A stretch of DNA of 64,000 nt from NCBI GenBank assembly GCA_008632985.1, contig QPGO01000022.1:620001-684000 (forward strand). The letters run 5' to 3'. Source of the stretch: Psammoneis japonica. Lineage: Eukaryota. This document shows, one piece after another, positions 1 through 55,516 of the stretch. Both the position numbers and the translations under genes were made by a program. Position 1 is the first letter of the stretch. Each line of letters opens with the position of its first letter. The notes beneath the pieces are model-generated. The model made no database searches. It was given only the letters and a program-made list of their open reading frames with translations, and had not been told where the DNA came from.

Positions 1-238
1 TATTTTTCCGATGAATTATTCTTTTTTAACTTCAAAAGAGCTTGTTCCGCTTGATGCACTGGCTTCATATCTCTAGCGACTCCCACTTCCCACTCTCGAA
101 CCTCTCTCTAAGACTCTTTCTGCTGTACCAAACAGAATAAGAGCGACGAACGTCGAGCGTCAGCGTCTTTGTTCGTTCGCGATGATGGGTTGCCGTTCGT
201 TTGGTGAAAGGGCGAGAGACAGACGGAACACCGATGTG

Positions 239-286
239 TCGAGCGAGCGCTCGCGAGCGAGCGAGCGAGCGCTCGCGAGCGAGCGA
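239..286. repeat. (GAGC)n-type CG-rich microsatellite
   Basis: tcgagcgagcgctcgcgagcgagcgagcgagcgctcgcgagcgagcga. Confidence 0.8.
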
Positions 287-316
287 TCCATCCACAGGAT
301 CTGTCTCGCTTCTGCC

Positions 317-787
317 TGCGGTTCACCAGCAAACTGGGTGAAGCAGGGACCTTCGTGGACTGGACTGGTGTGTTGATGGACACGTGCACGAGCCTTGCAT
401 CGTCCAATCCCAAGCTGGACGGCTGGGCCAGAGGGGTGGGCAAGGTGGGGGTGTTTGGGGCTGTCTCTCTCTGTTTCACTCTCTGCTGTGATGATGATCA
501 GCTGCTGTTGTTGCCGCGCTGCTTTTTGGAAGAGCTGCAAACGGAAAGCAACGAGGTGTGAGTTGCTCTCTGCTGAACACAAGCAGTCAATTGCTTGTGG
601 TGGTTGGAATGACTGCAATGGTTGGAGGAGCATTTCAATGGTCACGAGAGGGCTCCACCTCACCTTGTCGAGCTGCTTGAGGCAGAGCTGGGGCGGTGCC
701 ACACCCTCCGTTCACCTGTGTGGTTCACTGGCAAACTGGGGAAAACAAGAGTCTTCTTGGACAGGCCTGGTTTTGTCAGTCAGACAC
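317..787. repeat. pair of ~70-bp degenerate direct repeats (~317-384 and ~719-787), possibly terminal repeats of the adjacent YR retroelement
   Basis: tgcggttcaccagcaaactggg...tggactggactggt...gacac vs tgtggttcactggcaaactggg...tggacaggcctggt...gacac. Confidence 0.6.
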
Positions 788-929
788 CACATGAAGTGTG
801 TGAGAGACTCTGACTCGGGACCCGTGCCATGCACACACACTGGGAGGAGTTGGCCTGGTGGGTGAGGGTGCAACTGGAGAAGGATGTGGCATCATGGCCC
901 GCCAGCAGGCATGGGGACATTGGCATTGG

Positions 930-1760
930 CTAAGATGGAGGTTGAAGTCACTGGCAAGCATTTCTTGGGCAAAGTTGTGCATGGTGGGCTCTGCTTGGTG
1001 GGGTGATGGCATCGCAACATTCAGTCAGAATGCTGCCTGCCCAAGAGGAGTCATGCCAGATCAGCATCCACATGGGCACAGAAAACAATGCCATGGTGCC
1101 TGCTGTGGCATGACAACACTGAGCAGAAATGTCAGAGATCATGTGGCCAAAGTTGGCTGGGTCAAGAGCAACAACAGTGCTGTGCAGAAGAATGCGGGCA
1201 ATGTTGGCTGGCCCTGAGAGACATGACACCAGGCATCAATGTGAAAACATGTGCCAAGGGGCATGTGTCAGAATGTGCTCCATGGGTGCTGCACAAGCAT
1301 TTGGTGCAACAGACTGGAGCATGGGTGGGGCACAAATTGTGGTGGCCTAAAAAGCCTGGGCTCCAATTGCTTCCCCACGCATGCTGTTTTTCTGGGCTGT
1401 GAAAGCAAAGGCAGAGAAGAAAGCAGCGGCATGATCAAGTTGTGCATCAGGAACTTGGAACAAGTCCACACAGTGGCCACCTGTGGTCAGGCAAACACTG
1501 TCAAGGTGGAAAAGTGTCACATTGGATGGGGTGGTGGCACACTCTCTGCGACATGGCAGGGAAAAAAATGTGATGGCTGTCATGTCACCATCACAGCTTG
1601 GGCACCTGGTTGTTTGCTGGTGGCTGCTGCACACACGACATCCGCAAGAGGATGGCAATGGGGGGCTGGCTTTACCCAGCGTGGCAGTGGATCCTCTTTT
1701 TCTTTTGCAAAATGAACTTGGCGGGAAAGCCACAAATCCATCTTGCCCAACTTTTCTCAA
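930..1760 (-). pseudogene. degenerate tyrosine recombinase of a DIRS/Ngaro-type retrotransposon
   Basis: Stitching frames gives KEDPLPRWVKPAPI ... AITFFSL ... FTAQKNSMRGEAIG ... GTMALF-CAHVDADLA*LLLGRQHSD*MLRC ... QAEPTMHNFAQEML. This matches YR C-terminal motifs (SLRxGGAMAL...GRWxSDxMLRY); the catalytic Tyr reads as Cys. Confidence 0.7.
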
Positions 1761-2134
1761 CTTTCTGCCAACACAAATGACAGCAACATGTGCAGCAATT
1801 CATTGTTGCTGACAATGTGAGCCTGTCAAGCTGCTCCAAGTGTGTGGGTGGGTTGTTGTCATGAACAGTGCATTTTGAGTTGATCACCTTTGCTCAAACT
1901 TGATTTCTTTCAACTCCAAGAAATCATGGTTGCTCTTCTCACATGAGAGTTTTGAACTGCAGAGACGGAGGAACAGCTTTGTCCACTCACTGGGGGGAAC
2001 AAGGCAAGCAATGTGAGTGAGTCATTGTTTGTTTCCAAGGTGACAGTCACTTTTTCAATCATTTGCCATTGCCAAAGCCAGATTTTTGCCAGGTTTGGAC
2101 AATTGTGGTCATGTTTCTTGTGGGATTTTCAAGC

Positions 2135-2800
2135 CCAAGTCCTGCTCCAAGCAATGCACCACAACTGGCATGACACCACCACCAAGTTGCGCTCACTGGC
2201 AATGATTTGAGATGCTCCAAGCAGTGGTGTGCTGAGTGCAAGCGCCTCATTTCTAGCTTGGCAGAGGTTGGCATGTTTTTTAATGCCAACACCTTTGCAG
2301 TCACCAAGTGTGGTCCCTGCTCCCAGCAATGCACCAACTCACATGACACCACACTGCTGAGTCACTGTTGTTGGCAGTGATTTGATGCTCCAAGCAGAGG
2401 GCTGAGTGCAAGTGCTGTTCTCAGCTTAAAACCCAGAATTCCAAAGCTGACACCTTGACAGTCACCAAGTGCAAGTCCTGCTCCCAGCAATGTGCCAACT
2501 CACATGACACCACCACAGTCACCAACGATCATTTGATGGCGCTTAAAGCAAAGTGCCAAGTGTGAGCCCTGGTCCAGCTTGGAGCTGGTGCATCGGCAAT
2601 CTCCAAGTGTCAGCCCTGCTCCTGGCAATGCACAAACTCACATGACACCACCACCAAGTCACAGTCATCTGTGACTGGGGTTGATGCTCCAAACAGAGTG
2701 CTGGTCTGTTCCTGCAGGAAAGTCCATCAAGCAGCCCTGCTCCAAGCGATGCTCCAAGCAGCAGAGCACCAAGCTCAAGTGTGCCCTGCTCCCTTGGAGT
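2135..2800. repeat. degenerate tandem repeat, ~140-175 bp unit, 4-5 copies
   Basis: Recurring cctgctcc..gcaatg..c.aactcacatgacaccac...gatgctccaa.cag near 2140, 2315, 2477, 2614. Confidence 0.75.
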
Positions 2801-3282
2801 CAAAGAAACTGCAGTGCAAATGTCTTGGCATTGTGAAGCACCTTCTCTGCAACCATGTGCAGCACCTTCATAAAGCCCGTCAGCTGTCCTGAGTTCCATG
2901 CCAGGTGGCATCCAGTTGCTGGTCTGTCCAGAGTCAGCCAAGCCATGTGCCTTCTCCACAGCCATCCACAGTGCTTGTTGTCTGTCAACCCTTTTATGGT
3001 GCCCTTGCCCCCCCCCCCCCCCCCCCACCCCTCCGAAATGCCAACTGCAGCTCCTAGCAACATGCCATCAGCGCTCCAACAGCAGAACCAAGTGATTTTC
3101 TGTCTCTTTTGCCTTCTTCTGTGCCCTTAACTCCTCTGACTGGCTCTACTAGAGGTCCACTTTGACGCTGAATCGGCATGCTTATGTGCATGTAACCAGT
3201 CCGCGTGTGGCAGAGATGACAGTAATTGAAAAGGACTGCAGATCTGTCTCTAAATATCTCTGGATTAAACGCGCTACAGTAG

Positions 3283-4644: not shown

Positions 4645-5616
4645 ATTTCAAATCCGGCTGCTCTAGAGGTTTGATGTTTCAGTTGTCGCGTCTAATGGAT
4701 GGTTTCAATTCTCTACGTTCAAAGCGTACGCATGTGGTTGCCGTCGGCGTAGGATCGTTGTGTCATTGTCGTTTCGCATTTTCACCTTCCATTTTCTCTG
4801 TTCGCCACGTCATCGCGCTCGCTGCGCGTGCAGCTATGGGTGGGGACGCCGTATAAATCACGTAGAGACGAATTTTCTTGGATCGAAACGAGAGTTACCT
4901 TGGTCGATGGAGGGTGTTACGGCGGTCTTAAAATGGGGGGTAACTTTTTCATTTGCCTTGTGTTCATCGATAATGAGATCGATGAAGTGACCGCAATTTT
5001 CCCGTGCTTTGCCGTGCAATCACGACTGAAAACATTTCGATTTTTCGAAAATCCCACCATTGCTCGTTTGCAGTTTTGGAATGTCACTGCAACTTTTGTC
5101 ATGCCAACACTGGCCAACATCAAAAGCAGAGGCTCTCACGTCTCTGACAACATGTCTGCCATGTCACCTGACTCCACAGTTGGAAAGAACGTGAAACGGC
5201 ACTTTGGTCGCTTTTGCCGCACTTCACCATGTTGTGGTCACGACTGAAAATCCTTGATGACTCGTTTGCAGTTTTAGAGTGTTGTTGCGGCTGTCATGAC
5301 ACCAAAAGTGACCGATGTCAATTGCAGAATCTCTTGCATCTCTGACAATTTGTCTGCCACTGCAGTTGTCACTCCAGTTGCAGAGAATGATCAATGGCGT
5401 TGTTCTTGCTTTTCCCGCACTTTGCCGCGCAAAAATCTGCCATTTCAAATGCGTGCCCGTTTCGCAGCGATGCCAAGGTCGGTCACAGGTCCCATTTTCT
5501 GATGTGCTCAACTCTGCATTTTTTGTCCTTTCCAGAGTGCTGTGCCATGCCAGTGGCCTGATTCTTCCCACTCATCCTCTTCACCTTCAAAGTCTGAATC
5601 TTCTCATCGTCACTCT

Positions 5617-5862
5617 TGACAGGATTTGAACAAGATTTTAGTTTGTCACACACAATTGTGTGTGCTCTCAGTTCCGGGCACGTTGCATGATGCAGTTTGC
5701 TTTCAAGCCACATGGCTCACAAGAATGATGACAGCAGCACCGACATCATGACACCAGTCTTTTGGCTCCTGTGATGGTCTCTGCATGGAGACTCATCTGC
5801 TGTTCAGACAGCAGCAAGGAGTCATTGCATTCTTCCACCCCAGTCATCTTCATTTTCTGTCA
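5617..5862 (+). repeat. 5' LTR of copia 1 (followed by a tandem copy of its 3' half, 5863-5990)
   Basis: Aligns to 10364-10609; TG...CA ends. Confidence 0.92.
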
Positions 5863-5990
5863 CAGTGCCGACATCACGACACCAGTTTTTTGGCTCCTGT
5901 GATGGTCTCTGCATGGAGACTCATCTGCTGTTTAGACAGCAGTGAGGAGTTGTTGTTTTCTTCCACCCCAGTCATCTTCATTTTCTGTCA

Positions 5991-8900
5991 GAACACCTTG
6001 CCCCAGCCCACCAAGGCCATCATTCTTGGCTTGCGCAATGCCCACACCGGCAACTGCCATGACTTGACGGCGGCCAACCTGCACAACCTCCATCTTGGCA
6101 GTGACGGCAATGTCAACTTGTCCGCCAACACCCATGATCTTGCATCGGAACTTGCACCATCCGACGCTGCCGCCGACACGGCCGATGCCAACCCCATCCC
6201 CCAGCCCATCTCACATGGCGCAAGCCTTTACCACCCGGCAATTTGCAACGCCTCCTGGCACCTGAACGGCCCCCCTCTGCCCACTCTGGTGAGAACCCCC
6301 CTGGATCTACACCTTCTGTCTGCTCCGATGAGAAATCCAATGGATCTGTGTCCCTCCGCACTGCCGACACTGACACTGAGCTTAACGGTCAAAAACACCG
6401 TCGCGTCAACAACCACAATGTCGTCTGCTCTGCCTTGACCCACAAGTCAACTCACAAAGGTGCTCTTGTGGATCGTGGTGCAAACAGTGGCATCGCAGGT
6501 GATGATGTTCGTGTCATTGCCCGCAATGGTCACCAGGTTGATGTCCAAGGTGTCAATGATCATCAACCAGTCAACACCCCCATTGTCACTGCTGGTGGTG
6601 TCATCCACATGCAACGCGGCCCTGCCATTGCCATCCTTCACCAGCGCGCCTGCACTGGAAAGGGGAAGACAATGCACTCTTGCAGCCAGCTTGAGTGGTG
6701 CAAACATGATGTCAACGATCGGTCCATCAAGGTCCCCAACGGTCTGCAGCACATCACCACCATTGATGGACACATCATTCCCATCGACATTAAAGCCGGC
6801 CTTCCGTACATTGCCATGCGCCCGTGCACCGACGCCGAATGGGACACTCTGCCACATGTCATTCTCACTGGTGATGACACATGGGATCCATCTGTCCTTG
6901 ACCACCAGTTCACCAATGATGAGACATGGTGTGATGCCATGTCTGACCTCCAAGACGACCCGACTGCCAACCTCTTTGATGAGTTTGGCAACTGTCATCA
7001 CCGCCATGTTGTCAACAACGCCATGCTTGCAGACTCCGTCCTTGATGATCACCTGCTCCTGACATCTGATTTCTTCTGTGAATGCCATGAGCGTGAACTC
7101 CATCCAAAGGATCCCGACTTTGAGTCTCTCCGCCCTTGTTTTGGCTTTCTCCCAGAGGACACTGTTCACCGCACTTTTGATTGCATGAAGCAGTGTGCCC
7201 GCATGCCAGCCAGCACACACCTGAAAAAGGCATGCAAGTTGCCCAACCCGGCTCTCAATGTCCACCAACGCAATGAACCCATTGTTGCTGACACGGTGCA
7301 CTCCAACACCCCTGCTGTTGACTCTGGTTGCACCAGCGCCCAGCTCTTTGTCGGCACAGAATCTCTCGTCACTGACGTGTGTGGCACCAAAACTGACAAA
7401 GAATTTGTCAACACCCTCGAAGACAACATTTGCAATCATGGTGCCCCGTCCAAGCTCATCAGCGACCGCGCACAAGTTGAGATCAGCAACAAGGTTCTTG
7501 GCATCATTTGTGCCCTCTTCATCCCCAGTTGGCAAAGCGAGCCTCACCAACAGCATCAGAATTTTGCTGAATGCCGCCACCAAACTGTGAAGACCATGGC
7601 CAACACTGTCATGGATTGCTTCAGGTCCCTGGCTTGCACCTTGCTGCTCGCCCTGATGAGCGTGTGCTTTGTCCCCAACCACACGGCGTCCACCAAGCTC
7701 CACTGGCACACCCCCACCGAGGTGCCATCCGGCTCTACTCCCGACATCAGCCCGCTCCTCTGCTTTCAATGGTGGGAACCCGTGTGCTGCCACCTGGATG
7801 ATTCCGACTGGCCGTCCGAATCCCGTGAATTACGTGGTCACTTCATTGGCATCGCCGAACACGTTGGTCACCAAATGACATTCAAGATTCTTTCCAACGA
7901 CACTCAGAAGATTCTCTGCCGTTCCAACATGCGTTCTGCCCATGATCCATCTGCTCCAAACCTGCGTCTTGATCCTCCTGAGAAGAAATCTGCTGAACCT
8001 GTCATCAAACCCCACCACGACTCCGAGGATTTGCCAGATTCACCAGATGGGGAGGCGATCAGGATGCCCAAAATGCCGGTCTTTGACCCCGAGGACATCA
8101 TCGGATGCACCTTCCTCATGAAGCCACAAGAGGATGGACAACGCCACAGAGCCCACATCGTCAAAGCCGTTGAGGACCATGACTGGAAAATCAGAGTCAA
8201 TCCTGAACTGGTCAAGTTCATTTGCTCCACCAACAATGACGAGTGTGAGGAAATCCCAGCCTGCAACAACATCATGCACCACACTGAGCAAGAAGATGAG
8301 GACACCACCCTCTGGAAGTTCCAATGCATCGCAACAAAATGCATCGCATTGCACGAAGGACCATTGCAACCCCATGATCCCTCTTGGAAAGACTCAAGCT
8401 ACAACATCATGCTTGAATGGGAGAATGGGGAGATCACGTCCGAACCCCTTGCCACCATTGCCAAAGATGATCCTGTCACCTGTGCCATCTGCACACGTGA
8501 GCATGGCCTTCTTGAAACCAAAGGATGGGGGTGCTTTTGCAAGATGGCCTTGCATCAGAAGAAGCCATTCCGCATGGCCAACCAGGCCAAGTTGCACTCC
8601 TTTTGCACTGCGCCATGACACAAGTGCGGGTGTGAAGTGCCGCGCGACTGCAAGCATGCCCTGGCCCTTGATGAGCGCAATGGCAACTGCAAGTGGGGAG
8701 ACGCAACGGACCTTGAGATGACTCAGCTTGATGAGCATGAGGTCTTCCGTGACTGCGGACACTGCAAGGATTCCAGTGCTCCATCAGGACACAAGAAGAT
8801 CCGGGTGCATCTCGTCTGCAACGTCAAACATGATGGACGGCACAAAGCAAGGCTTGTTGCCGATGGACACCTCACAGACGCGCCCGTCAACAGTGTCTGT

Positions 8901-10376
8901 TCTGGAGCAGTGTCTCTCCGTGGCCTGCGAATGATGATCTTCCTGGCCGAATTCAATGAACTAGAGACTTGGGCCACTGACATTGGGAATGCCCATCTCA
9001 AAGCTGTGACCAAGGAGAAACTGCACATCGCAGCAGGCCCCAAGTTCGGTGAGCTGGAAGGACACATCCTTGTCATCCACAAGGCCTTGCACGGACTCCG
9101 CAGCTCCGGCCTCAGATGGCATGAACACTTTGCTGATTGCTTGCATGCCAAAGGCTTCTTCCCATGCAAAGCCAAACCCAACATCTGGCTGCACAGGAAT
9201 GGTGACCACTGTGAACATGTGGCAGTGCATGTGGATGACCCAGCCTTTGCCATGAAGGACCCCCAGGCTTTTGCAAACACCCTCATGGAGAAATGCAAGT
9301 TCAAGCTCAAGGGCACTGGACCATTGGAGTTCCATCTTGGCTGCGACTTCACCCGTGACCCAGACGGCACCCTGTGCCTTGCTCCCTGCAAGCACATTGA
9401 GCACATGGTTGGCAACTGCGCGCGCCTCTTTGGGGAGAAGCCCTGCACTGATGTGCTTTCACCCCTTGACAAGGGAGACCACCCTGAGCTCGACACCTCT
9501 GAACAGCTCGAACTGGAGGGCATCCACCAATTTCAATCCTTGGTTGGATCCCTGCAATGGGCCGCATCTCTTGGTCGCATTGACATCACTGCGGCTGTCA
9601 TGTCCCTGTCCAGCTTCCGTGCAGTGCCCTGCCAAGGCCACCTGGACTGCGCCAAACGCATCTGTGGATTCCTTTCCAAGATGCATCATGGTGCCCTCCG
9701 AGTGCGCGCTGAGGAGCCCGACTGTTCGGACCTCCCCAAGCCCGTGCATGACTGGGCTCAATCTGTGTGTGGGGAGGTAGAAGAGCTGCTCCCACAAGAT
9801 GCGCCCGAGCCACTTGGCAAGTTCATCACCACCACACACCACGTTGATGCGAACTTGTTCCATTGCATGCTCACTGGGTGCTCTGTCACTGGCATCCTCC
9901 ATTTCCTCAACAAGTTTCCGGCTGATTGGTTCTCTGAGAAACAAGCAACAGTCGAGACTGCCACGCATGGATCAGAGTTTGTTGCCGCAAGGACATGCGT
10001 TGAGCAGATCATTGATCTGTGCATCACTTTGCTTCACCTTGGCGTCCCCATTCGTGAAACATGTCACATGTTCGGGGACAACAAGTCAGTTGTGGACAGC
10101 GCCACCATCCCGCACTCCAAGTTGCACAAGCAACACACCGCCCTCTTGTTCCATCGGGTGCGCAAGGTGATTGCCTCCGGTTTCCTTGAGCTTCATTTCA
10201 TCGAAGGCTCCCGCAACCCAGCTGACATCCTCAGCAAGCATTGGGGTCACTCCCAAGTCTGGAGCCTCCTTTGTCCTCTGATGTTTTGGAACTTTGATCC
10301 CAAGGCTTTCAACCAATCTGACCTCAAATCTGTTGCTGTTGACCCCTCAAGCAAACTGGGGAGTGACAGGATTTGA
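5991..10376 (+). pseudogene. copia 1 gag(C-term)-pol pseudogene (protease, integrase, RT, RNase H)
   Basis: ALVDRGANSG (protease), LISDRAQVE..QSEPHQQHQNFAE (integrase), HDGRHKARLVADGH, DIGNAHL, HVDD (RT) and NPADILSK (RNase H); TGA stop at 8616-8618. Confidence 0.92.
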
Positions 10377-10609
10377 ACAAGATTTTGGTTTGTCACACAC
10401 AATTGTGTGTGCTCTCAGCTCCGTGCATGTCGCGCAATGCAGTTTGCTTTCAAGCCACGTGGCTCACAAGAACAACAACAGCAGTGCCAACATCGCAACA
10501 CCAGTCTTTTGGCTCCTGCAATGGTCTCTGCACGGAGACTCATCTGCTGTTAAGACAGCAGCAAGGAGTTGTTGTTTTCTTCCACCCCAGTCATCTTCAT
10601 TTTCTGTCA
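10364..10609 (+). repeat. 3' LTR of copia 1
   Basis: Follows the PPT; ends tttctgtca before TSD ACTCT. Confidence 0.92.
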
Positions 10610-15700: not shown

Positions 15701-15757
15701 TTGGAGAATCCTTTCTCAGCAAACACACAACAAACAACAACGATGATGACCACAACC

Positions 15758-17590: not shown

Positions 17591-17767
17591 ACACAAACAG
17601 AGGGGCTGACAATCTGTCAGGAAGAGGTCGCCATTGTTGAAAAGACACATGGATGTTTGCTTGCAAAGCAAATGCACACTGCCTCTCTTCAAAAACAACA
17701 GATGGACTGCTCAAGCTCTTCCAATGACAGAATGACAGAGAGGATCACATTGGCACAAACAAGGCAG

Positions 17768-44984: not shown

Positions 44985-46630
44985 CAGTTTTTCACAGGAC
45001 AGACAGACAATGTTGCAGCAAATGATGCACTGATGATTGTTGATGATGCAGCAAATTTGTGCTCACAACTCATGATGAGTCATGGGTCTTGTGCTTGCTT
45101 TTTAGCTTTTGCACCCATTGACATGGCAACAGCAATGGAGGTGCATTTGCAAACCAAGTGAGCACGCCAGTTGGCAAGCTGTGAAATCCCAACACAGAAG
45201 CCAAAAGAGCTGGCTGCAAAACCATCAAGAGCCTGAAGGCATGATTTTTTTGTCAATGGATTGCAGCAAACAAGCTGGCTGGATGAAGGCAAAGAAACCT
45301 TCTCTGGAGGGCCTTGTTGTGAGAAAGCTCCTGGTGTCAAGGGTCTGCTGCTGAAAAAGAGGGTGTGGTGGTGAAGCTGTGTTGGACTGGGACAAACATC
45401 AACATTGACAAGGACACAACTGAGCATGGAAGTTTGAAAGATTTGAGAGAGTGCATGCATGGTGACACCATTGCAGAGTTGGGTCAACAGGCAGATGGTT
45501 GGGCATGGGGCCATGAGACAAATCAGCGAGTGTGTCGCAAGAATGTTTGGGCCAGAGATGCAGGTGCTGCTGGCATCTCTGAGGCAGGAGAACAAACTGG
45601 AGGAGCTGGAACATTCATTGGGCACAACCATGTCAGGGGGGGCAATGCACCGCCTGTGTGCAAATGGGCTGTCCACCACAAGGTTGAAGGAGTGATGGAG
45701 TTTGAGGGGGTCACAAAGGAGTGGGACATGGTGGCATGATTGGAAATTCTCAAGTTGATCTCATTTGATGCAAACAAAAGAAACCACTTGCATGCCCAGG
45801 CAGTCAATGCTTGGAAGCAGTTGGCACTCATTCATCAGGATGAAGGCAAGGTGCTTCAAGATCACTGTGCAATTGGCTCATGAGCATTGTTGAGATGGTG
45901 GGAGGGTTGTGTGGCAGACCCATCCCAGAAAAAATTGCCAACAAAGAAGATGGGTTTGGCAAGGATGCTGATGACACCCAGAAAAAAAGGAACAAATTGC
46001 CAGTGTTGCTGCCAATGGAAGGTGCCAAGGAACATTGGTGCATCTTGAAAGACCTGCACCGGCAGTTGGCACTGGGGATTGACAATTGTCCCAATTTGCC
46101 CAAGGAGGCACTGCAGGTGTTGGACGCATGTGGGTCCAACAAGAAACCTGAGGGTGTGAGCTTTGTGCAAAATGAGAAGAAGCAAATCAAATGCTGGAAA
46201 TGCAACAAGGTTGGGCATGTGAAAAAGGGCTGTCCTTTGCTCAATGATGATGATGATCATTCATCAGTGGAGTCCTTGGACAATGTCAGCCATGAGGGTG
46301 GATGATGCAGTCAACATGGCATTGGACAGAATGGTCTCCAACTGTCACCCTCCTTTGGCTGCTGTGCCCAAGTCAGCTTGTGTGAAAGACAGTGTGTTGG
46401 AACAGTTTTTCTGCAGGACAGTCAGACAATGTTGCAGTGAGCAATGCACAGACAACTTCTTAAACTCATGCTGAGTTTTGGGTCTTGTGCTCACTTTTTA
46501 GCTTCTGCACCTGGTGGTCAGCATGGTGACAGCAACAACAGCAATGGAAATGTGTCTGCAATCTGTGCAGCAAGTTTGGGGATCAGCAAGACCAGGTGCA
46601 CATCAGCCTGCAAGCCATGAAATCCCAACA
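44985..46630. repeat. ~220-bp degenerate direct repeats (~44985-45195 and ~46402-46630) flanking a gag remnant
   Basis: cagttttt..caggacag.cagacaatgttgcag...aactcatg.tgagt..tgggtcttgtgct...tttttagctt.tgcacc...aacagcaatgga occurs twice. Confidence 0.7.
45365..46305 (+). pseudogene. degenerate retrotransposon gag with CCHC zinc knuckle
   Basis: LALGIDNCPNLPKEALQVLDAC...GVSFVQ...IKCWKCNKVGHVKKGCP (CX2CX4HX4C). Confidence 0.7.
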
Positions 46631-49600
46631 TCAATGCTGCCATGCCAAGGAAGGCTTCAATGGCCAGACATTGAGGGCAATGTGCCAAGCCACAGTGCCT
46701 TGTCCCTGCACTTGCCAGCCTTGCTTTTTCTAGCATCAAGACTTTGCAAACATTGAGCTCACACCACTTGAGTGGCTTGCAAGTGCTGAGACATCAGATG
46801 AGGAGGCACATGTGGTCTCTTTCATTTTCCCTCCAACACACCATTGTGAGATTGTCAAAGAAAGTGTTGAGGAGCTGCTGTGTGTTTTCAGGCTTGTAAA
46901 ATAAATGTTGTGACCAAAGTTTCCAGCCACAGAGAAGCCTTTTTTCCAATTGTTGTGTTGTTGGCAAAGCATGCTGGCCAGAACACTGCTGCTCTTTTTA
47001 AGCCCCCCCCCCCCCTTCTGTGTGGGCTCTCACAAGTGCAAAATAGAAAGAAGCACTGCTGGGGCTGTTCAAGTTGTGCCAACATGCAACTGAGTGGAGT
47101 CACAAATGTTGGTGCAGTGTCTGAGCTTGGAGGATCCTGCGCAGAGAGAACAAGCTTGTTGAGATCTTGCAGAGAGAACAAGCCTTCTGAGATCTGCCCC
47201 CAGCCAGCAGCACACTGCACCTGGAGGACCCTGGTGCTTGGTGCTTGTGGCATTTTGTCACATTCAAAATTTGAGTTTGAAGTCAAGGACAACACACTCT
47301 TTGTTTTGTTTGAGTTGGCACTTGCCTCACTCTCCACCACCTCTTTTTGTTGCATTTCCCATGCTCTGCACTGCCAACTTGTTCCAGACTGCTGGGTGAG
47401 TCACAACAGGACTGTGGCATGCTCATGAGCACATGCCCCATGTCAACAAGGACAAAGAGCATGACAAATTCCTTGGGGGGCCCAAGCTCAAAAAGATGAG
47501 TGTCAAAAGCATCTCACATTTAGAAAGAATGCAAAGACAGTCCAGAAGTCATTTTGCCAAATGCACATGATGTTGACAGAACAACTCTGCTTCATGATGC
47601 ATGGAAGAAAACTGACTGCAGGGATCTGTGCAAGAGTGCTTTCCAGGGGAGCAAAGGAACATGTCACAAGGATTGCTGTGATTTTCACAAGGGAACAAAA
47701 TCCAGCCCCTTTGTTTCTTGCCAAGAAGATTTTAAATTTGTGTTTGGTGTGGCACCAGAAGAGCTGCAACCCATGCTTGGTCATTTTGAATGATGGATCA
47801 AGGAATGGATGGACTCATTTGTGGATGCAATGATGGAAGTGTTGCATGCCACCCTTCACAAGAGAGTGCTGCTTCAGGTGAAAAAACAACTGCAGACACT
47901 CGTCACGTGCATTTGCCAACAATTGCATGCAAGTGCTGCATCAGTGCAACATTGTGATGGTTGCTGATGATGATCAGATGTGCACTTGGTCTTGGCAGTT
48001 TGACTCTTTTCTGACCAGCTGGGTTGTGTCTGAGGTGAAAGCAGTTGGCAAGAAGGGAGATGGGACAGATGTGTTCTTTGAATGAGTTGTTGGGAATGAG
48101 GACATTGCAGACATGCTCAGTGGCTTGAAGGGAACACTGCACTTCATGTTGCACTGGACACTTTCTGCATCAGCTGAGCAAAAATCATCAAGATGCAAAC
48201 TCACAATTGAAAAATTTGTTGTGCTGAATTGGCTGGCAGCCAATTTAGAGCAAGAAGGAGGGAGTTGTCTCTGATGTCATAGACTCAAAAGAGATTCAAA
48301 ACAACTCCCTTTCTCAAGCTGGTCCTCTGTGCTTCCAACTCATTTGTCTCATGGATGTTTTGCATGCTTTGAATTTGACACCACATGTTGTGGCCCAGCT
48401 CAAAGATTCATTTTCTTGCCATTGTCAAACAGAGGGCAGAGTTGCAAGACCTCCTCTTTGCAAAATGTGTGCTCTGTCACATGCTTTGGTTGCAGAGAGA
48501 GAGATGTGCAGATGACTGATGTGTGCAATGTCATTCTTTCAAAGTGTGCAAACATGAGATGCTGCAATGCACTTTGCAAAACAAATCAAGCAGAAAGCCA
48601 ATGGCACTCAGAACTGGGTTGCTGCCACAGCAGTTTCAGCAAAGAACAAGAGGAAGCAAGATTCAGAGCTGCCATGAAAGTTGTGCACCAGCAAAATTTG
48701 GTCCAGTTGCGGAGCTTGTGCTGGACAACAACACCAATTTTTGTGACTTCCCATGTTAAAAAAAACCTTGTGCTGCCACAACATTCCACTGCAGTGCCAA
48801 ACAACATCACCAATTTTTTGTGACTTCCCACTCATCACAACTCACTCAATGAAGCCTTTGTTGGCTGTTCATTGTTTCTGGAGCCAGAGCAGTTGCACTT
48901 CTTTGCATTTTCTGTTCTCAAAAAAGCAGATGAAGCTGTGCCTTGTTGGCAGCACATTTGGTTTGGCTCATGGCGTCTGCCACAATTCTGTTGATTGTTC
49001 CAAAATGCTTTTCATTTGTGTCTTGGCTGACCTTTGCAAGATGACAACACTTTCCCTTCATGGCACATGTTTGAAAAATGTCAAGCACACAAAACTGCAA
49101 CAAACACATCTCAAGCTTTGTCTGGCATCTGTTGGCAAGAACTTGTTTGGATCAAAATCCTCCAGCTGGGTTTTGAGCCATGAATTTCATTTTTCACACC
49201 AAGACAGAATCTGCAACAGCTTTTCAGCATGTCCTGGACCAGAATTTGGAGTGGCTTTGGCAACAGGTTTTTGGGTCCATGCTGTTGCATGTGTCAAAGC
49301 AGAAACTGATCATTGTCATCACCATGCATTCTTTCAGATGATGAAACAGCTTTTGTGTGACAACCCCAGGTGGGGGCAGCCATCCATCAGATGCTTGTTC
49401 GGATGGGTGCATGCTTTGCAATCTTTTTTTTCATGGCACCACTCATGAGTCAAGCATTGGAGCCAACACACATTGCTTTCCACTGACTCATTTCATTGAA
49501 AGTCACTTTCAGACTGGTGGAGCACAACAATGTGCTGTTGCCTTGACAAGCTTTGGGTGCAATGTGCACTTGACACTTGGTGTGACATGGGGCAGTTCTT

Positions 49601-50849
49601 GTGCACTGGCTCTCAGCTGAACAATGCTCTTGCTGGTGGCTTCTTGGTTTTGTGTGAGGAGCATTTGAGATGAAAATGAATGCACACCACTCAGTTGAAG
49701 TGTCGCGACTCCAAAGTCACTGTCTGGCCCACCATCAATGCTTGCCAGGAGAAACCATTCTCATCCATGACCATTGCATTGTCCTCCACATGTCAATGAA
49801 CTTGTGTGGTGTGATCAAACTGTGGGAAAATTGCAAGCCACAGTTGCAAAACGCAAATCAATTCCAGGTTTGAGAGACTTTGCTGGGTGCACCAAGTGCT
49901 CATGGCTCAACTCAATTGCTTCTGAAACTGCACTCTCGAAATTGCACCCTTTGTGTTCCATCTTTTGTGGCAACACCTTCTGAACAACAATGTCATTCTC
50001 CAAGCATTTTTTGATTGAGCTCTTGCCTGTGTGCTCAGTTTTCTCAAACTGTGCAAATCTCTGGGACCCAATGACACTTGCAATGAGTTCTTGCTGCACT
50101 CTCCTTGAGGATGGCTTCTGTCCAGCAAAAAAGAACTGGGCACATTAACCTGCCCATCTGAGCCTTGTTTCTCTTGCAAGTTGCTGTCCACTCCATTTTG
50201 CACCAAAATGGCTGCACCTTGGAACCTCTCAGACAATGATCAATGAGCCACCAACCCAGCCCTTGGCAATGTTCACAAGTCTGGTTCAGTGCTGTGTTGA
50301 AAAGGAAAGGCTGAGTCTGAGACTTCCAAGTTCAGTTCGTTTGACTGCTCATTCTGGGCTGATGGAAGCATGCCTCAGGAATCAAACACATCTGCTGTTG
50401 CGTGCTGCTCACATGCTGTCACTGGAAATCCAAGCAAATGAAGAATTTGGCTGAGAGCTCTAACAGCACTTTCAAAGAATGTGTGGTTGGCTCATTTGCC
50501 ATCAACCTCACAGCTGCATTCTGTTTTGCACAGGTTCATTCCATCAGCAACAATGTGGTGCCAGTTGCCATCACATTTGAGATTCCACCCCAGTTTTTTA
50601 CAACAGCATTCTGCCCAGAGGTCTGACAGCATCCAGCAGTCACAGGGGCACTTGTCATCAGTGTTGGATGCTGCACAATGGCCACAGATTTGCAAACAGG
50701 TGCTTTGAATCTAGAGCCTGTTTCTCCCTGTCTCCGGGGCTAAAACCAACCAAGATGGCCCTTGGCAGCAGTTGTGAACTCAACTTTGTTGCACATGGGG
50801 TCACCAAGACAAAATGAGAGTGCCAACAAACAAAGTGCCAGCAGCCAGC

Positions 50850-52560
50850 CACCATGACCAAACTCAATCAAGAAGCATTTTCCATCAACAACACCTGCCA
50901 GTCTTTCTGGAGTTTCAATGAAAGACCTGGAGTGATTGGTTGTCAAAGACAGGTTGCATCATGTTTGAAACACTGCCCCATTGGCCCACTTGGCAACAGG
51001 TTCATGGGTGATCTCTTTCATGCACTCAAGCACTCAATTTTGAGTGCAAACAACAGCAGCAGCATCACCCTTTCCAAAACCAAGTGCAAGCTCAGTCCTC
51101 CTGGCCAACACATCAACATTGACCATCAAAGAACTTGGGAAGCAGGTGCCTGTGCTGCTGCCACAGCTGCAAAATGTGTTCAATTGTCAATCATGAGTGA
51201 ATGAATCTGCTGCACAACATGCAGAGTCTGAGAGCATTTCATTCTCCACCTCAACATGTTGACACATCTCATGGAATTCTCAGCCAAATCACTGTTGCTC
51301 CTGAAATGCAATCATCACAACAATTTTTGTGTTTTGCTGGCCAGCCAGCTCATTTTCTCATGTGTTTTGTTTTTCTTGCTGTCATCTTTAAAGTGTGTCC
51401 TGCCAAGCAGTCAAAGCAACTTGGGCATCTGGGTGGACAAGACAAGCTCCAAAAGGTTCCTCGCCACCAACGACCATGCTTCAAGAGCTCCCTGGACCTG
51501 AAACAAGCACTCGTCCAAATGGAAATGCCACTGAATTGCCTCCTCTTCACATCTGATGCTGAGGCCCATTGCTCTAACACACCTGCCAACAAAACACCCC
51601 CCACTGATTGCTTCCTGTCTTTGACATCACGAAAACAACTGCAATGATGCACCAATGAAAGCCCTTGTCAAAGCATTCCAAGTTGCAATGGACAACAATG
51701 TGCTCACATTTGGAAACACTGCCTGGCAGCACCAGCACAATGGAGCTGCCATGGGCACACCACCCACCCCTCCACATGCCACCCTGTGCTGTGCACTTCA
51801 CACAAAGACATGCTCCTGGAGGAGTTTGGCTCCCAGCTGTTTTGCGGCAAATGATTTGTTGTGATGATGATGTCTTTGGCATCTGGCACATCACCACCAC
51901 CACCGACACTGCCACCTGGGAAGCATTTGCCTCCAGGCTTGACAACTTCAACATTGCCTGGATCACGAGTGCCCAAAGCTGCCAAAGTTAACTTTGTGGA
52001 CCTCACAATCTCACTCCAAGGCTCCCACCTTCACACTGCCCTTCACCAAAAAGAAATGAATCTGTGCATGTGCATCCCACCTCACTCAGCTCACCCGCCT
52101 GGAGTGCTCACCGGCCTGATCATGGGCATGCTCTTCTGCTTTTTAAAAATCTTTACTCCAACACTGCCAATGCAAAGGCAAAGATGAGACTGCTCTGCCT
52201 CTGACTGCAAGCTCAAGGCTGCAAGCTCAGCAAACCACAACCACTCTTCTGCAAGGCACACAACTTCATTTTTGGAAATGCCGCCACCAGAACAACACTG
52301 GAACACCAGCCCAACCCCATCTCCCTGCACATCCCTTGTCACCTGAATGACCCACTGTCCAGTGAATGGCAGAAGATTTGAAAAGGCACTGGCCACCCCT
52401 TCCTGCTCACAACCCCTCTCAAATCTCCAAAACTGGGCCAGACAATGCATCGGCCTGGACCGCATGATTGCACGCTGCAGCCGCTCCCACAACCTTGGAA
52501 ATCTCCTTTCACATCACGTCCTTTGCACCCCACTGGCCCCCCAGTTTTGTCCTGCCAGAC
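50850..52560 (+). pseudogene. Penelope-like element reverse transcriptase remnant
   Basis: LLFTSDAEA, MDNNVLTFGN..W....GAAMGTPP, CCDDDVFGIW (YxDD-like), VNFVDLTI, KEMNLCMCIPPHSAHPPGVLTGLI, SRSHNLGNLLS; 5' limit approximate. Confidence 0.78.
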
Positions 52561-52579
52561 TGCAAACAGGGAGACCACT

Positions 52580-52640
52580 GAGAGAGAGAGAGAGGGAGAG
52601 AGGGAGAGAGAGAGAGACAGACAGACAGACAGAGAGACGG
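52580..52640. repeat. (GA)n/(GACA)n microsatellite; a second (GA)n tract lies at ~52917-52965
   Basis: Seen directly in the sequence. Confidence 0.85.
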
Positions 52641-55516
52641 CAATTGAACTCGAATCGTCCCAATCGACCCGTTCACCCCCCTTCAGATCTTTTTAACACA
52701 ACAACCTCAATCACGCAAACAGCAACAGCCAGCCGCTGATGAAGCCACTGCAAAAGTCTTGTTCTCCTGACTTTGGCCAACATTGTTGTGCCTGCTGTTT
52801 GCTGAAACAGTTGGATGAACATCCGATCAAGCAGCTCCACCTTGGCTGCCAACACTGTTTGTTTGTCACATTTGACAGAAAATTGGCTTTGCCAATTTTG
52901 ATCATTCATTTGTTCAAGAGGGAGAGAGAGACAGCAATTTAATTGAGAGAGAGAGAGAGAGAGAAGAGTTCCCAGCCAGCAAGTGAAGACAAAGCCTGCC
53001 ATGATGTCTTCTGCCATGGCAAGAAGAGAAATGGAGTTCTCCTCCTCAGCGCACCAGCTGCTGGAGCTGCTGCCATGCATCCTTCTGTTGACCACGTCAT
53101 CAAGAAGATTGACTTTGCCTGTGGCAAGATTTGTGCCACCTCTTCTCACAAGCCATTTTGCAGCATGTGTTCTCCTTTGCACTCTTCTTTCAAGTGCTCT
53201 GCAGTTGGCTGGAAAGATCCAAGAAGGACAGTTTGACAACAGACAACTCAGGGCCATGACCATGGCCACCCACAGGGATGTTCTTCTCTTCTTTTCTGTT
53301 TCAAAAAGTGTTGCTGACACATTGTCTGGATGACTCTCTTCAGTCATTTGCCAAGTGCAGGTCATGTTGCAGATGTCACTCCTCTGCATGCCCACAGGCC
53401 AAAAAGCTCTCAAATTGGTGTGCTGGTTGTCTTGGCAAAAAATGTGGGCACGTCAAACCTTGTCACAGGCTGCAGTCATTCATCATGGTGGCAACAACAA
53501 CACATCAACCCAGAGATCCAAAATGGTCATGGGGCAAAGGTCAGCCACCACAGCTCCCAAAGGCAGGTGCATCACCTTGCTCAAGAATCTCATGTGGGGA
53601 GCCTTTCTTGTGCAGTGTGCATGCAGACAAAAGGTCATTTTTGTCACACCCTTTGTGACATTTAAAGGCTGTAACACGTCGCCGTGATGCATTGACTCTC
53701 ATCAGCAGCTGTCCATTGCACTTGCACAAGATTTCATTGGACTCAAGATGGGGGGCAGAGTTGGTGTTCTGATGGAGACAACATCATGGCTTTGGCTCCT
53801 GCCTCATTGTGCAGCTGACAAAAGACTGCCAATGTGTGCAGGAGGACAGCAATTGCCATCCCACATGATTTCTGTGTGGCTGCTGCTTGCCTGCAGAGTG
53901 AGCAACAGAGTTTTGTGCTCAAAAAGCACACCCATGTGCCATGTCTCCAAAACAATGGAGCCTGACTTTTGAGCACCACCAGTCTTTTCTGAACCCATCA
54001 AAACAAGTCTGTCACAATGCTGTTGGAGAATGCACCAGCCATCTTGAACAGCTCCAAGGCAAACAACAAGAAAGCAAGAAGAGCAACTCGCCCAATCTCC
54101 CAGTCAAATGGCCCAGCACAACAAGCCAAATGAGCCCACAAACTTGTGAGGCATTTCATGTCACTTTGCAAATGATGTGCTGACATGTCAAGCAACAATC
54201 AAAATCTTTTGCCTGCTGAAGAGGAGTCACCACATTGGCATTTTTGCTTGAGACATTTGAGGTTTTGCTGCAAGGTCAATTTTTTGGTCTGAGTGGGCAG
54301 ACACCCCAAGCCCACTCTGAAAGCACTTCCTGTTTCCACAAAAAAGCCCATCATTTTGACCAACCTTTGCTTTGCACTGCTTGCCAGTGTGGCCACAAAA
54401 GCACTGTTTCCTGTCCCTGGTGAGTTTTTTGAGTTCTTTCACACACAGTCAAAAGAGGGAGCCCCCAAGAAGGATGAGCTCATTTCCCATTGGTGGGGGG
54501 AATCACCAACAGCAGCCAACCCCTTTGTTTGCTCCACTTTGAGCTGTTTGAAATGTGCTGTTGTGCCAAGAAGATGTCAAGCACCAGTGCTCATTTGATG
54601 CAAATTTTGTGGATCATGCATCAGGACATGTGTGCAGGCATGATGCCACCGGGCTGACCTGAACTCACACTGGACTCTCAGATCAAGTTCAAAAAAGGCA
54701 CATTGTCTGGATTTTGTGGTGTGATGCCACAAGAATGCACAAGTGGCAACAACAGAAAGGCTTCTGTTTGACCAACTGTCAAGTCCTCTGTGACAGTTGT
54801 TCACCCAAGCATCCAAGTTTGCTGGGGTGGGTCCTTCTCACCACTGGTGCAATCTCATTGCTGAAGTCAACAAGCCACCCCTGTGCAGCCATGTTGATTG
54901 CTTTTTCCACAATGCTTGGTGCTGCAATTCTCAACATTGCCAATTGCCACCTTTTGCTGCAAACTTTGCCATCATGCTTTGCAGTGCGGTGCCAGACCCT
55001 TGTGCTGGTTTGAGTTCCCAACAACTTGTTTGCCTGGATGAGATGGCCTCACTTTTTTGTTTTCACTGCTGTCATGTTTGAGGCTGCCCAGTGTTTTCAT
55101 TCTTGATAAGAAAAACGGCAATGGCAAGAAACTCCCAAAGTGAGCACATGTGCACGGGTCAGATGCCACCATCTCACAATCGTCATTTTTGATGGTTGGT
55201 TTTGCCGCTGTTCCTGCCCACCATGGGCGTCGCACGGCATGGAGAAGAAAAAGCAGCATATGAGGTCGACATCAATGAGTTTCTTTGTGAATGTAGCTAC
55301 TTTTAGAATGGCATTGGTGCGGATTGATCATCATTGTTTTATGTTCATGATTGTTGCCGGCCACCTTGCGACGAAAGATTATATCTTGCGCAACTCTCTG
55401 AACGATGGCGTTCGTGGCATCACGTACTCTGCCGCGACACTAATGACTAATTTATCGCTCTCGTTTCGACAAGTGCAGACTTGCTACAATGGCTGTTGCA
55501 CCTTCTTCTTGTCAGC

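Follow-up and report, generated by a model that had tools for sequence, protein, structure and literature searches.

Near-complete loss of TpA from repeat-bearing blocks of a diatom genome, an apparently undescribed hypermutation chemically opposite to fungal RIP

In a 64,000-nt stretch of forward-strand DNA from the diatom Psammoneis japonica (GCA_008632985.1, contig QPGO01000022.1, positions 620,001 to 684,000; hereafter the window), nearly every T:A pair within 5'-TA-3' can be shown by sequence comparison to have been converted to C:G after insertion, with sites and strands changing independently of one another, and this conversion occurs only within non-genic blocks with sharp limits, which contain high-copy copia elements along with other relics. 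The pattern points to a TpA-erasing, repeat-directed mutation process that is chemically opposite to fungal RIP and apparently undescribed; our literature search found no earlier description of TpA-erasing repeat hypermutation. We consider deamination of adenine at T-A-Y in silenced or repeated chromatin the best explanation overall, with a probability of roughly 0.45 on the basis of the mutational footprint in this one 64-kb window. An earlier note on the same DNA had proposed a mutator acting at the DNA level on silenced repeats, and its interpretation is partly supported.

The four TA-poor blocks described in that note, which lie beside host genes with normal TA, were recovered with the same limits by segmentation in 250-bp bins:

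140..3125, no strand: TA-free block 1, with 10 TpA in ~3 kb; strongly CpG-depleted too
4980..11290, no strand: TA-free block 2, with 16 TpA in 6.3 kb; copia element 1 and ~0.6 kb of TA-free flank on each side
11291..13394, + strand: host island between blocks 2 and 3; HSF-type DNA-binding gene (Pfam HSF_DNA-bind, E 6e-21), normal TpA
13395..34520, no strand: TA-free block 3, with 85 TpA in 21 kb; copia element 2, LRR gene relic, and CpG-poor sequence
34521..44689, no strand: host gene cluster; OCRL-like inositol 5-phosphatase/RhoGAP, ESCO-type zinc finger, aldose 1-epimerase, and protein kinase (Pfam)
44690..55255, no strand: TA-free block 4, with 29 TpA in 10.5 kb; the lowest in CpG of the four blocks

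The TpA depletion of the blocks is confirmed as real and very strong, with an observed/expected ratio of 0.056 within them (140 TpA in 40,993 bases, ~41 kb) versus 0.596 in the gene-bearing DNA outside (921 TpA in 23,015 bases). TpG (1.80 vs 1.12) and CpA (1.69 vs 1.12) are higher inside the blocks and CpG is lower (0.39 vs 0.99), and the remaining dinucleotides are the same inside and outside, including ApA (1.17 vs 1.15), ApT (0.89 vs 0.89), and GpA. Judged by individual TpA positions, the density switches within ~10-50 bp at block edges: at the left edge of block 3, TpA is dense until 13389 and then absent before 14601, and at the right edge of block 2, the last TpA lies at 10833 and TpA is dense again from 11299. 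Dense TpA in the host island reaches both adjoining block edges. The host gene cluster, for which diatoms are the nearest named relatives, has normal ratios (TA 0.42-0.82, CG 0.78-1.15). The corresponding values are 0.03-0.10 and 0.11-0.16 for block 1 at 1001-3000, and 0.00-0.09 and 0.04-0.26 for block 4.

A Pfam search of all 200 stop-to-stop ORFs of at least 90 aa that overlap the blocks returned copia RVT_2 alone, in 2 ORFs; the YR, Penelope, and TIR classes that the earlier note had listed among the targets were not found in this set. Among ORFs of at least 90 aa, block 1 yielded no Pfam family below E 0.001 and a single chance-level Triabin match (E 0.0025), and block 4 contains a weak zf-CCHC zinc-knuckle match at 45844-46302 (E 0.0011) that is under the Pfam cut-off. 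Both copia copies are present, as judged by LTR pairs in self-BLAST and by 5-bp target-site duplications, and the relic of a cellular-type gene lies in block 3:

5617..10612, + strand: copia element 1; LTRs 5617-5862 and 10364-10609, target-site duplication ACTCT (self-BLAST, LTR alignment)
8619..10373, + strand: RT/RNase H frame of element 1; 585 aa stop-to-stop, Pfam RVT_2 E 3.7e-18, zero Tyr, YVDD changed to HVDD
15885..16673, + strand: LRR_6 gene relic (RNase-inhibitor/RanGAP-like leucine-rich repeat, cellular-type); in-frame TGA, TA observed/expected 0.05, 0 Tyr
18308..25441, + strand: copia element 2; LTRs 18308-18571 and 25160-25438, target-site duplication TCTGG

In element 1, a 123-bp tandem duplication extends from the end of the 5' LTR to 5990; element 2 carries a single gag-pol frame (19352-25210) with three in-frame TGA codons and an RVT_2 match at 23666-24235 (E 4.7e-15). 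The copia families are high-copy, with a summed depth of 5,000-100,000 in run contigs (see below) vs ~60 for unique DNA. For the LRR relic, phmmer found 459 relatives at E ≤0.001 (best 7e-47); LRR_6 is present in 4 of 6 scanned top matches, and Cys (TGT or TGC) stands at 3 positions where relatives often carry Tyr. This gene relic, a possible duplicate, partly bears out the claim that duplicated host genes were affected.

The reported scarcity of Tyr (0 in the 579-aa ORF and 2 in the 1015-aa ORF) is correct, and the motif pairs HVDD/CVDD, DIGNAHL/DIGNACL, ATHGSEF/ATCGSEF, HWGHSQ/HWGCSQ, SVCGE/SVHGE, and IHKALHG/IYKALYG were all found in the translations. The changes were polarised against 60 related copia RTs, which have a conserved Tyr in 21 columns. 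Element 1 carries His at 12 of these columns, Cys at 7, Phe at 2, and Tyr at none, and element 2 carries Cys at 13, His at 5, Tyr at 2, and Phe at 1, in agreement with the proposed change of TAY to CAY or TGY; conserved non-Tyr columns, in comparison, were kept in 314/364 cases (86%; Fisher p = 2e-17 vs Tyr columns). The outcome at the Tyr columns settles the direction of change, from TA to TG or CA. TA scarcity is not inherent to the copia family: the TA observed/expected ratio ranges over 0.31-0.99 in 79 related copia loci of metagenomic origin, with no 1-kb window below 0.22. Former Tyr sites of the two elements are concordant in 8 and discordant in 9 of 17 cases, and the TG/CA discordances (n = 63) are without runs (z = -0.4); as the earlier note had claimed, the copies resolved the same sites independently.

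The sense strand carries both polarities (17 His vs 20 Cys, p = 0.74), which alternate on a scale of 6-100 bp. Within the LTR pair of element 1, 27/246 columns differ, of which 24 are transitions and 22 lie inside YR<->YR dinucleotide changes; for element 2, 32/264 columns differ, with 29 transitions and 24 inside such changes. Direct TA vs TG/CA differences number 3 in the LTR pair of element 2 and 4 in both pairs together. Because most differences within the LTR pairs of single insertions, whose target-site duplications are intact, fall at these dinucleotides, because both polarities occur, and because the LRR relic is affected, the change from TA to TG or CA happened in chromosomal DNA after insertion and not in RNA or cDNA, in line with the DNA-level action proposed earlier.

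The context dependence of TpA loss is new here. With flanking host DNA standing in for the ancestral composition, and with some residual TpA possibly newly created, survival inside relative to outside the blocks is 0.22 for TAA, 0.10 for TAG, 0.043 for TAC, and 0.018 for TAT, and by tetranucleotide 0.012 for RTAY, 0.055 for mixed contexts, and 0.31 for YTAR. The order of loss is thus TAT > TAC > TAG > TAA, or equivalently R-T-A > Y-T-A, with RTAY ~25x more depleted than YTAR. Former Tyr codons became TG in 19 and CA in 7 cases after a pyrimidine vs TG in 7 and CA in 14 after a purine (Fisher p = 0.009, with sites of elements 1 and 2 not fully independent). These data fit a model in which each strand would be hit independently, ~3.7x faster if a pyrimidine follows the A, and which predicts 0.061 for the mixed contexts. 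Centred on the A, this rule reads A>G at TAY, and centred on the T, it reads T>C at RTA; the two are formally identical, and deamination of A and a mutagenic change of T are therefore indistinguishable.

The rate at TpA exceeds that at other sites at least ~100-fold, and this excess, together with the strict dinucleotide specificity, points to enzymatic action and not to spontaneous decay. A nucleic-acid deaminase recruited to silenced or repeated chromatin would turn adenine into hypoxanthine at 5'-T-A-Y-3' in DNA; the hypoxanthine would pair with C, and replication would then fix A:T to G:C. The natural target of TadA-type tRNA deaminases is U-A-C, which the T-A-Y context resembles, and to this extent the TadA-like deaminase suggested in the earlier note fits. 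ADAR and engineered TadA-derived DNA adenine base editors share the net A>G change and the 5' T(U) preference; however, DNA-acting TadA variants are laboratory products, and a naturally occurring eukaryotic deaminase of DNA adenine is not known to us.

The footprint resembles RIP of ascomycete fungi, which is RID/Dim-2 dependent, in its dense transition hypermutation of repeat-rich blocks with sharp edges beside intact genes, as well as in its dinucleotide-specific action on both strands of chromosomal DNA and its destruction of TE coding capacity. However, RIP converts C:G to T:A, mostly at CpA, making TpA and AT-rich isochores, whereas the diatom process converts T:A to C:G at TpA, erasing TpA and raising GC; its description as the chemical reverse of RIP, and of 5-methylcytosine decay, holds. 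Functionally, it would act as RIP does, inactivating repeats irreversibly by mutation, but through the opposite base change. We infer a role in genome defence from the loss of catalytic Tyr: the coding capacity of the elements is wrecked, with nearly all Tyr codons gone, including that of YVDD, and TpA erasure additionally eliminates TAA and TAG stops. According to PMC9998398, diatoms possess RID-related DNMT4 enzymes of unknown function, but it is not obvious how a C5-methyltransferase fold would lead to A>G or T>C.

Alternatively, silenced repeats may be marked by a maintained symmetric modification of TpA that is itself mutagenic (5hmU/5fU made by a TET/JBP-type enzyme, or N6-methyladenine), an explanation that we consider unlikely, though it is the main rival. 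TpA would then decay to CpA/TpG as 5mCpG does to TpG/CpA, as a second epigenetic mark with a second decay footprint. The target is self-complementary like CpG and reaches the same TG/CA end state, the two strands are affected to the same extent and independently of each other, and the R-T-A form of the context rule suits an enzyme that reads T; moreover, 5-formyluracil mispairs with G. The likeness of TpA loss to 5-methylcytosine decay extends to the YpR target and to the restriction to silenced repeats, and ordinary CpG to TpG/CpA decay is shown to act in these same blocks as well, slower and more unevenly than TpA loss: CpG loss differs among blocks, CGN Arg codons have become Cys, His, or Gln in the elements, and Arg is kept at 18/26 and 20/28 sites in the same young elements in which Tyr is kept at 0-2/21. 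However, CpG decay cannot remove TpA, and TpA is already gone from block margins with normal CpG density; CpG loss is a process separate from the faster and more complete TpA loss. Since TpA loss is the more complete of the two, a TpA mark would have to be far more mutagenic than 5mC, and 6mA is, to our knowledge, not known as strongly mutagenic. Thymine hypermodification in protists (dinoflagellate 5hmU, kinetoplastid base J) would likewise offer a T-centred route to T>C, and in PMC11071213, 5hmU is described as a T modification associated with repeats in dinoflagellates, another algal lineage; however, that paper reports no sequence motif for it, a search on diatoms and 5-hydroxymethyluracil gave dinoflagellate-centred papers only, among the matches listed, and our literature search found no TpA-erasure footprint in organisms with 5hmU or base J.

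Error-prone synthesis or repair recruited to heterochromatin, e.g., Pol eta placing G opposite T at WA/TW during patch repair of methylated DNA, is improbable, and this candidate of the earlier note is disfavoured. Pol eta makes A:T>G:C changes at WA motifs with TA as a hotspot, and the CpG decay in the blocks implies T:G mismatch repair traffic. However, ApA, the other half of WA, is undepleted, a ~95% loss of TpA with almost nothing else altered is hard to obtain from a polymerase error spectrum, only 5/246 (element 1) and 8/264 (element 2) LTR columns differ outside YR<->YR changes, and TpA is gone where CpG density is normal.

The polarity data already contradict editing before integration, whether ADAR-like A-to-I editing of retrotransposon RNA or deamination of the single-stranded cDNA while it is being made, and we find it hardly credible, even though the best-characterised targets are LTR retrotransposons, block edges match insertion boundaries in sharpness, and UA is a favoured ADAR context. 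ADAR requires dsRNA, also edits A-A, and leaves one polarity after reverse transcription, as would any editing of genomic RNA or minus-strand cDNA, whereas in the diatom blocks ApA is untouched and T>C equals A>G on the sense strand, mixed within 6 bp. Furthermore, single insertions have LTRs that differ from each other, the TA-free sequence flanking element 1 lies outside the target-site duplications, the cellular LRR relic is affected too, and apparently allelic differences are present in single-copy stretches.

A technical artefact, in which modified bases were misread or assembly or polishing erred and the true DNA retains TA, is likewise very improbable. K-mer contigs built independently from a public run, from the same sample as the assembly and with the library type not on record, reproduce the TA-free sequence: at depth 55-85, they match five single-copy TA-free stretches of 411-1353 bp, with 0-3 differences per stretch, and one further stretch with 4. 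The stretches matched with 0-3 differences in block 3 are 13618-14028, 15526-16878, 16917-17672, and 17646-18060, and the flanks of element 1 at 5088-5640 (0 differences) and 10580-11093 (4) are approximately single-copy at depth 75-86; a run contig over 11312-13304 in the host island has 0 differences from the window. TG<->CA doublets between assembly and run contigs could come from strand-specific misreading, but strand-specific conversion predicts all-TG or all-CA phases per read length, and the mixed polarity 6 bp apart excludes it; misreading on both strands would make CpG, which is depleted instead. Moreover, the signature is seen in partial form in two copia proteins of environmental origin, from other data sets.

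That the elements themselves evolved UpA/TpA avoidance (against an RNase or TA-targeting nuclease), and not host mutation, has next to no probability and is already contradicted: UpA avoidance is known in RNA viruses (PMC6892864) and the copia families are very abundant, but invariant and catalytic Tyr are destroyed (YVDD to HVDD or CVDD), copies, and even the paired LTRs of a single insertion, resolve the same site differently, TA is just as absent from non-coding and non-TE sequence, and relatives elsewhere have normal TpA.

Restriction to repeats, and with it targeting by repetition, is less firm than the confinement to non-genic blocks with high-copy copia elements: a TA-free stretch of ~4 kb (13.6-17.7 kb) occurs in nearly single copy in run contigs at ≥90% identity, a count limited by this threshold, as mutated copies would diverge beyond it. 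Finally, TA/TG and TG<->CA differences were seen between the window and run contigs or other copies, which suggests that the process is recent or ongoing.

TpA is nearly absent from four blocks of the window (140-3125, 4980-11290, 13395-34520, and 44690-55255, blocks 1 to 4). Within them, its observed/expected ratio is 0.00-0.12 in most 1-kb steps and up to 0.18 in two steps that hold block or LTR edges, compared to 0.42-0.82 in the steps wholly outside the blocks. Pooled, the blocks contain 140 TpA in 41.0 kb (ratio 0.056) and the DNA outside them 921 in 23.0 kb (0.596). TpG (1.80) and CpA (1.69) are raised in the blocks in comparison to 1.12 outside, CpG stands at 0.39 overall with a range from 0.04 to 0.83 among sub-blocks, and ApA (1.17 in blocks, 1.15 outside), ApT, GpA, and the remaining dinucleotides do not change. 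The edges are sharp: at the start of block 3, TpA occurs each 10-40 bp until 13389 and then not before 14601, and the same abrupt switch is seen at 3125, 4980, 11290, 34520, 44690, and 55255.

The following features were found within the blocks, the two elements by self-comparison:

5617-10612, element 1 (block 2), a copia LTR retrotransposon with an 89% identical LTR pair and an intact 5-bp target-site duplication, ACTCT
18308-25441, element 2 (block 3), a copia LTR retrotransposon with an 84-88% identical LTR pair and an intact 5-bp target-site duplication, TCTGG
15885-16673, + strand, relic of an LRR_6 gene (block 3) of cellular type (RNase-inhibitor/RanGAP-like), with an in-frame TGA

The LTR pair, the 5-bp target-site duplication, and an RVT_2 reverse transcriptase, present in both elements (Pfam), identify them as Ty1/copia elements. 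At E 1e-10 or better, 2,209 copia relatives were found, the best 120 of which are 52-65% identical. Since the two elements share 76% identity internally, they belong to different subfamilies. Contigs assembled from a public sequencing run of the same sample (run X1) reach a summed depth of 5,000-100,000 over the copia elements compared to about 60 for unique DNA, which implies hundreds of copia copies within 90% identity; for the region 13.6-17.7 kb and the element 1 flanks, the copy number at 90% identity or more is about one. The 5' LTR of element 1 contains a 123-bp tandem duplication (5740-5862 and 5868-5990) that is absent from the 3' LTR, and between its two units, 9 columns differ, 6 through changes from one YpR dinucleotide (TA, TG, CA, CG) to another. 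The LRR_6 relic has a TpA ratio of 0.05 and 459 relatives in an exhaustive phmmer search (best E 7e-47); it may be the copy of a live host gene or a piece of a gene that a transposon picked up.

The Pfam scan covered the 200 stop-to-stop ORFs of at least 90 aa that overlap the blocks; a further 138 ORFs measure 60-89 aa. Only 2 of the 200 gave a convincing match, both to RVT_2, and none of the 200 showed a domain of an integrase, a YR recombinase, a Penelope element, or a transposase; the YR, Penelope, and TIR elements named in the earlier note therefore found no confirmation. Matches to Triabin, Nitroreductase, Usp-48, YjcZ, and zf-CCHC fell below the cut-offs and were taken as chance. Outside the blocks, the long ORFs encode ordinary cellular proteins (Pfam): a HAD hydrolase, an HSF-type factor, an OCRL-like inositol 5-phosphatase with RhoGAP, an ESCO-type zinc finger protein, an aldose 1-epimerase, a protein kinase, and an HLH protein. 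For the inositol 5-phosphatase, a search at E 1e-20 or better gave 2,200 relatives, and among the best 120 of these, the named ones are from the diatoms Attheya, Synedra, Cyclotella, and Fragilariopsis (66-76% identity). The cellular proteins and the diatom relatives of the phosphatase thus mark the DNA as nuclear and diatom. Two further host-side ORFs on the + strand with normal TpA, 58880-60496 (538 aa) and 61984-63999 (672 aa, continuing past the window end), matched no Pfam family.

The direction of change can be read from the coding sequence. The RT/RNase H frames of both elements were aligned with 60 of the 120 best relatives (59-65% identical), and 21 columns with Tyr in at least 70% of the relatives were defined as conserved. 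At these columns, element 1 has His 12 times, Cys 7 times, Phe twice, and no Tyr, and element 2 has Cys 13 times, His 5 times, Tyr twice, and Phe once, with CAY and TGY as the replacement codons, as the earlier note had proposed. Other conserved residues were retained in 314 of 364 cases (His 18/18, Trp 10/10, Pro 21/21, Gly 35/36), unlike Tyr (Fisher p = 2e-17). TpA was therefore ancestral and was turned into CpA or TpG. Conserved Arg was retained at 18 of 26 and 20 of 28 positions, and the lost ones, now Cys, His, Gln, Trp, or TGA, are ordinary CpG decay; the comparison of Tyr with Arg retention shows that TpA conversion is far more complete than CpG loss.

The earlier note's Tyr counts proved exact (0 in the 579-aa ORF, 2 in the 1015-aa ORF), and the 6 of its 7 motif pairs that were looked up, all but SSYNIM/SSCNIM, are present in the translations. 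Its claim that the two elements had resolved the same Tyr codons independently was likewise borne out, with 8 concordant and 9 discordant outcomes. A copia family inherently lacking TA and Tyr would have accounted for the pattern as well, but 79 related metagenome loci, obtained with two search patterns of which one included a Tyr, have TpA ratios of 0.31-0.99 and no 1-kb window below 0.22.

An assembly artefact is argued against by run X1, whose k-mer contigs (depth 55-85) match the TA-free single-copy stretches 5088-5640, 13618-14028, 15526-16878, 16917-17672, and 17646-18060 with 0-3 differences; the run derives from the same sample, with its library type unrecorded, and thus gives read-level support that is not fully independent. 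Misreading of a modified base on one strand would produce phases of all TG or all CA over a read length, and CpG would arise if both strands were misread; the data show neither pattern.

LTRs of one element are identical at integration. By now, 27 of 246 columns separate the pair of element 1 and 32 of 264 that of element 2; transitions account for 24 and 29 of these. The bulk of the differences, 22 and 24, fall within changes between YpR dinucleotides, with 5 and 8 otherwise; these include TG/CA doublets (7 and 6), CG versus TG or CA (7 and 9), and direct TA versus TG or CA (1 and 3). At conserved Tyr, sense-strand T>C (to His, 17) and A>G (to Cys, 20) are equally common and mixed within 6 bp, and the runs test (z = -0.4) finds no runs among the 63 TG/CA discordances of the two elements, and hence no strand processivity. 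Furthermore, the flanks of element 1 outside the target-site duplication and the LRR relic are TA-free, too. Together, the LTR differences, the independent Tyr outcomes, both polarities, the lack of runs, and the affected flanks and relic exclude editing of an RNA genome or of single-stranded cDNA and assign the process to chromosomal DNA and to the time after integration. RNA hyper-editing of the ADAR type, with fixation by retrotransposition, was rejected on the same grounds: it predicts A>G on the transcribed strand only, identical LTRs, and a restriction to retroelements, whereas both polarities occur, the LTRs differ, and the LRR relic and flanks are affected. What has acted here is a DNA-level, post-insertion, two-strand, TpA-specific A:T>G:C hypermutation, limited to these sharply bounded, repeat-bearing blocks.

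The process appears to be recent or still active, since copies and contigs differ from each other at such sites. In single-copy stretches, the window and the run X1 contigs show a TA/TG difference at 10834 and TG<->CA doublets at 10969/70 and 16463/4, and at 4902, 4909, 18066, and 18137, the window copy has TG or CA where other copies retain TA. Over six TA-free single-copy stretches (approximately 4.0 kb), 7 differences to run X1 were found, all transitions, and over two host-gene stretches (3.8 kb) 2 differences, both transversions. Those in the approximately single-copy TA-free stretches are probably haplotype differences.

The few TpA that survive in the blocks follow a context rule that is newly reported here. 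They lie mostly in TTAA (40), TTAG (22), CTAA (15), and TTAC (15), TTAA being the rarest TpA context outside the blocks. With both strands counted, survival inside relative to outside is 0.22 for TAA, 0.10 for TAG, 0.043 for TAC, and 0.018 for TAT, and at the tetranucleotide level 0.012 for RTAY, 0.055 for RTAR and YTAY, and 0.31 for YTAR. In a model with independent hits on the two strands, at a rate of 2.2 for an A with a pyrimidine after it and 0.59 for one with a purine after it, the mixed class (RTAR, YTAY) should survive at 0.061, compared to the 0.055 found. Polarity agrees: former Tyr codons (TAY) became TG 19 times and CA 7 times after a pyrimidine, for which the model predicts 79% TG, and TG 7 times and CA 14 times after a purine (Fisher p = 0.009, with element 1 and 2 sites not fully independent). 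Survival and polarity thus yield the signature T[A>G]Y = R[T>C]A.

CpG decay driven by 5mC is present in the blocks as well (CpG 0.39; Arg>Cys/His/Gln), yet it does not explain the TpA loss. In the young high-copy copia elements, about 95-100% of TpA is gone compared to about 30% of Arg CpG, and the block margins 13395-13690, 34120-34520, 10890-11290, and 4980-5080 combine zero TpA with normal CpG density, so that TpA loss either reaches beyond CpG decay or precedes it. These margins may represent TpA loss spreading into flanking DNA, or younger sequence. TpA loss and CpG decay are separable processes in a common territory.

LTR sites outside YpR differ by 2-3% compared to about 95% of TpA gone, a rate excess of about 100-fold or more, and we infer that the process is enzymatic. 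Our preferred reading, to which we give a probability of about 0.45 as a whole statement, is that adenine at T-A-Y in DNA would be deaminated, with hypoxanthine as the intermediate, and that this deamination would be recruited to silenced chromatin. In the tRNA target of TadA, U-A-C, the A is likewise preceded by U and followed by a pyrimidine; the T-A-Y context of the strictly TpA-directed loss thus resembles that of a TadA/ADAT-like deaminase, in context only. No gene for a CDA-fold deaminase with chromatin targeting was found in the window (Pfam). The main rival, in which a maintained and mutagenic modified base at the TpA step (oxidised thymine, for example) brings about the loss, we consider rather unlikely, and by sequence alone deamination and a modified base are not separable from each other (PMC11453091 and PMC6313786, in their available parts, provide background on 5hmU only). 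Mutagenesis by Pol eta at WA motifs, a suggestion of the earlier note, is disfavoured: it would bring about A>G at both TA and AA, but ApA is untouched (1.17 versus 1.15). Selected UpA avoidance was considered and rejected.

Functionally, the process is RIP-like and would count as repeat-directed point hypermutation. Fungal RIP takes place before meiosis, requires a RID/DNMT4-type enzyme, and affects only duplicated sequence that exceeds a threshold of length and identity. The base change is opposite, however: RIP converts C:G to T:A (CpA>TpA) and raises TpA and AT content, whereas here TpA is erased. PMC9998398 reports DNMT4 from many diatoms, its available part bearing on the relation of DNMT4 to RIP only.

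A partial signature was found in 2 of the best 120 of the 2,209 copia relatives, both environmental. P0218 has Tyr at 4 of 17 conserved columns (Cys 6, His 4), and P0215 at 12 of 23 (Cys 5, His 4) with Arg at 30 of 30; both retain 88% of other conserved residues. To judge from these sequences, the same process is probably active in other organisms. Full-text literature searches turned up no account of TpA>TpG/CpA repeat hypermutation, whether from diatoms or from other organisms, though a mention inside some genome paper may exist; PMC9258296 proved to be off the subject, and the available parts of PMC2806351 and bioRxiv 10.1101/2025.10.24.684338 contain no mention of TpA hypermutation.

We tentatively propose, at somewhat less than even odds, that diatoms, or this lineage at least, possess enzymes dedicated to genome defence, a system that singles out repeated or silenced DNA and turns the T:A of each TpA into C:G. 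This system would be one of two things: a DNA adenine deaminase, the first natural one directed against transposons, or a second heritable mark, placed on TpA, with decay like that of 5mCpG. In either form, it would have evolved independently of fungal RIP and with a base change in the other direction, and its partial footprint in environmental copia would extend it to other marine protists. The odds that the chemistry behind the process is new in kind are substantial. To our knowledge, the mechanism of repeat-directed hypermutation is known from fungi only, and as C-to-T only; TpA erasure by A:T-to-G:C change would be a second, chemically distinct answer to repeat control, in a major ocean primary producer. 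If enzymatic, it would amount to an A:T>G:C editor found in nature that works on double-stranded chromosomal DNA with strong context specificity and is of interest for base editing; we know of such editing so far from laboratory evolution only. If a modified base is involved, an epigenetic mark on TpA would have gone unrecognised in diatoms.

For annotation, profile searches miss mutated domains in such blocks (the gag and integrase parts in Pfam), repeat finders would under-cluster the copies, and gene finders would over-call ORFs. With TAA and TAG erased, the blocks are left with nearly only TGA stops (1,989 TGA versus 144 TAA and 77 TAG, 221 together, on both strands) and thus with long spurious ORFs; the 200 stop-to-stop ORFs of at least 90 aa that overlap them occupy all six frames, the longest reaching 1,017 aa.
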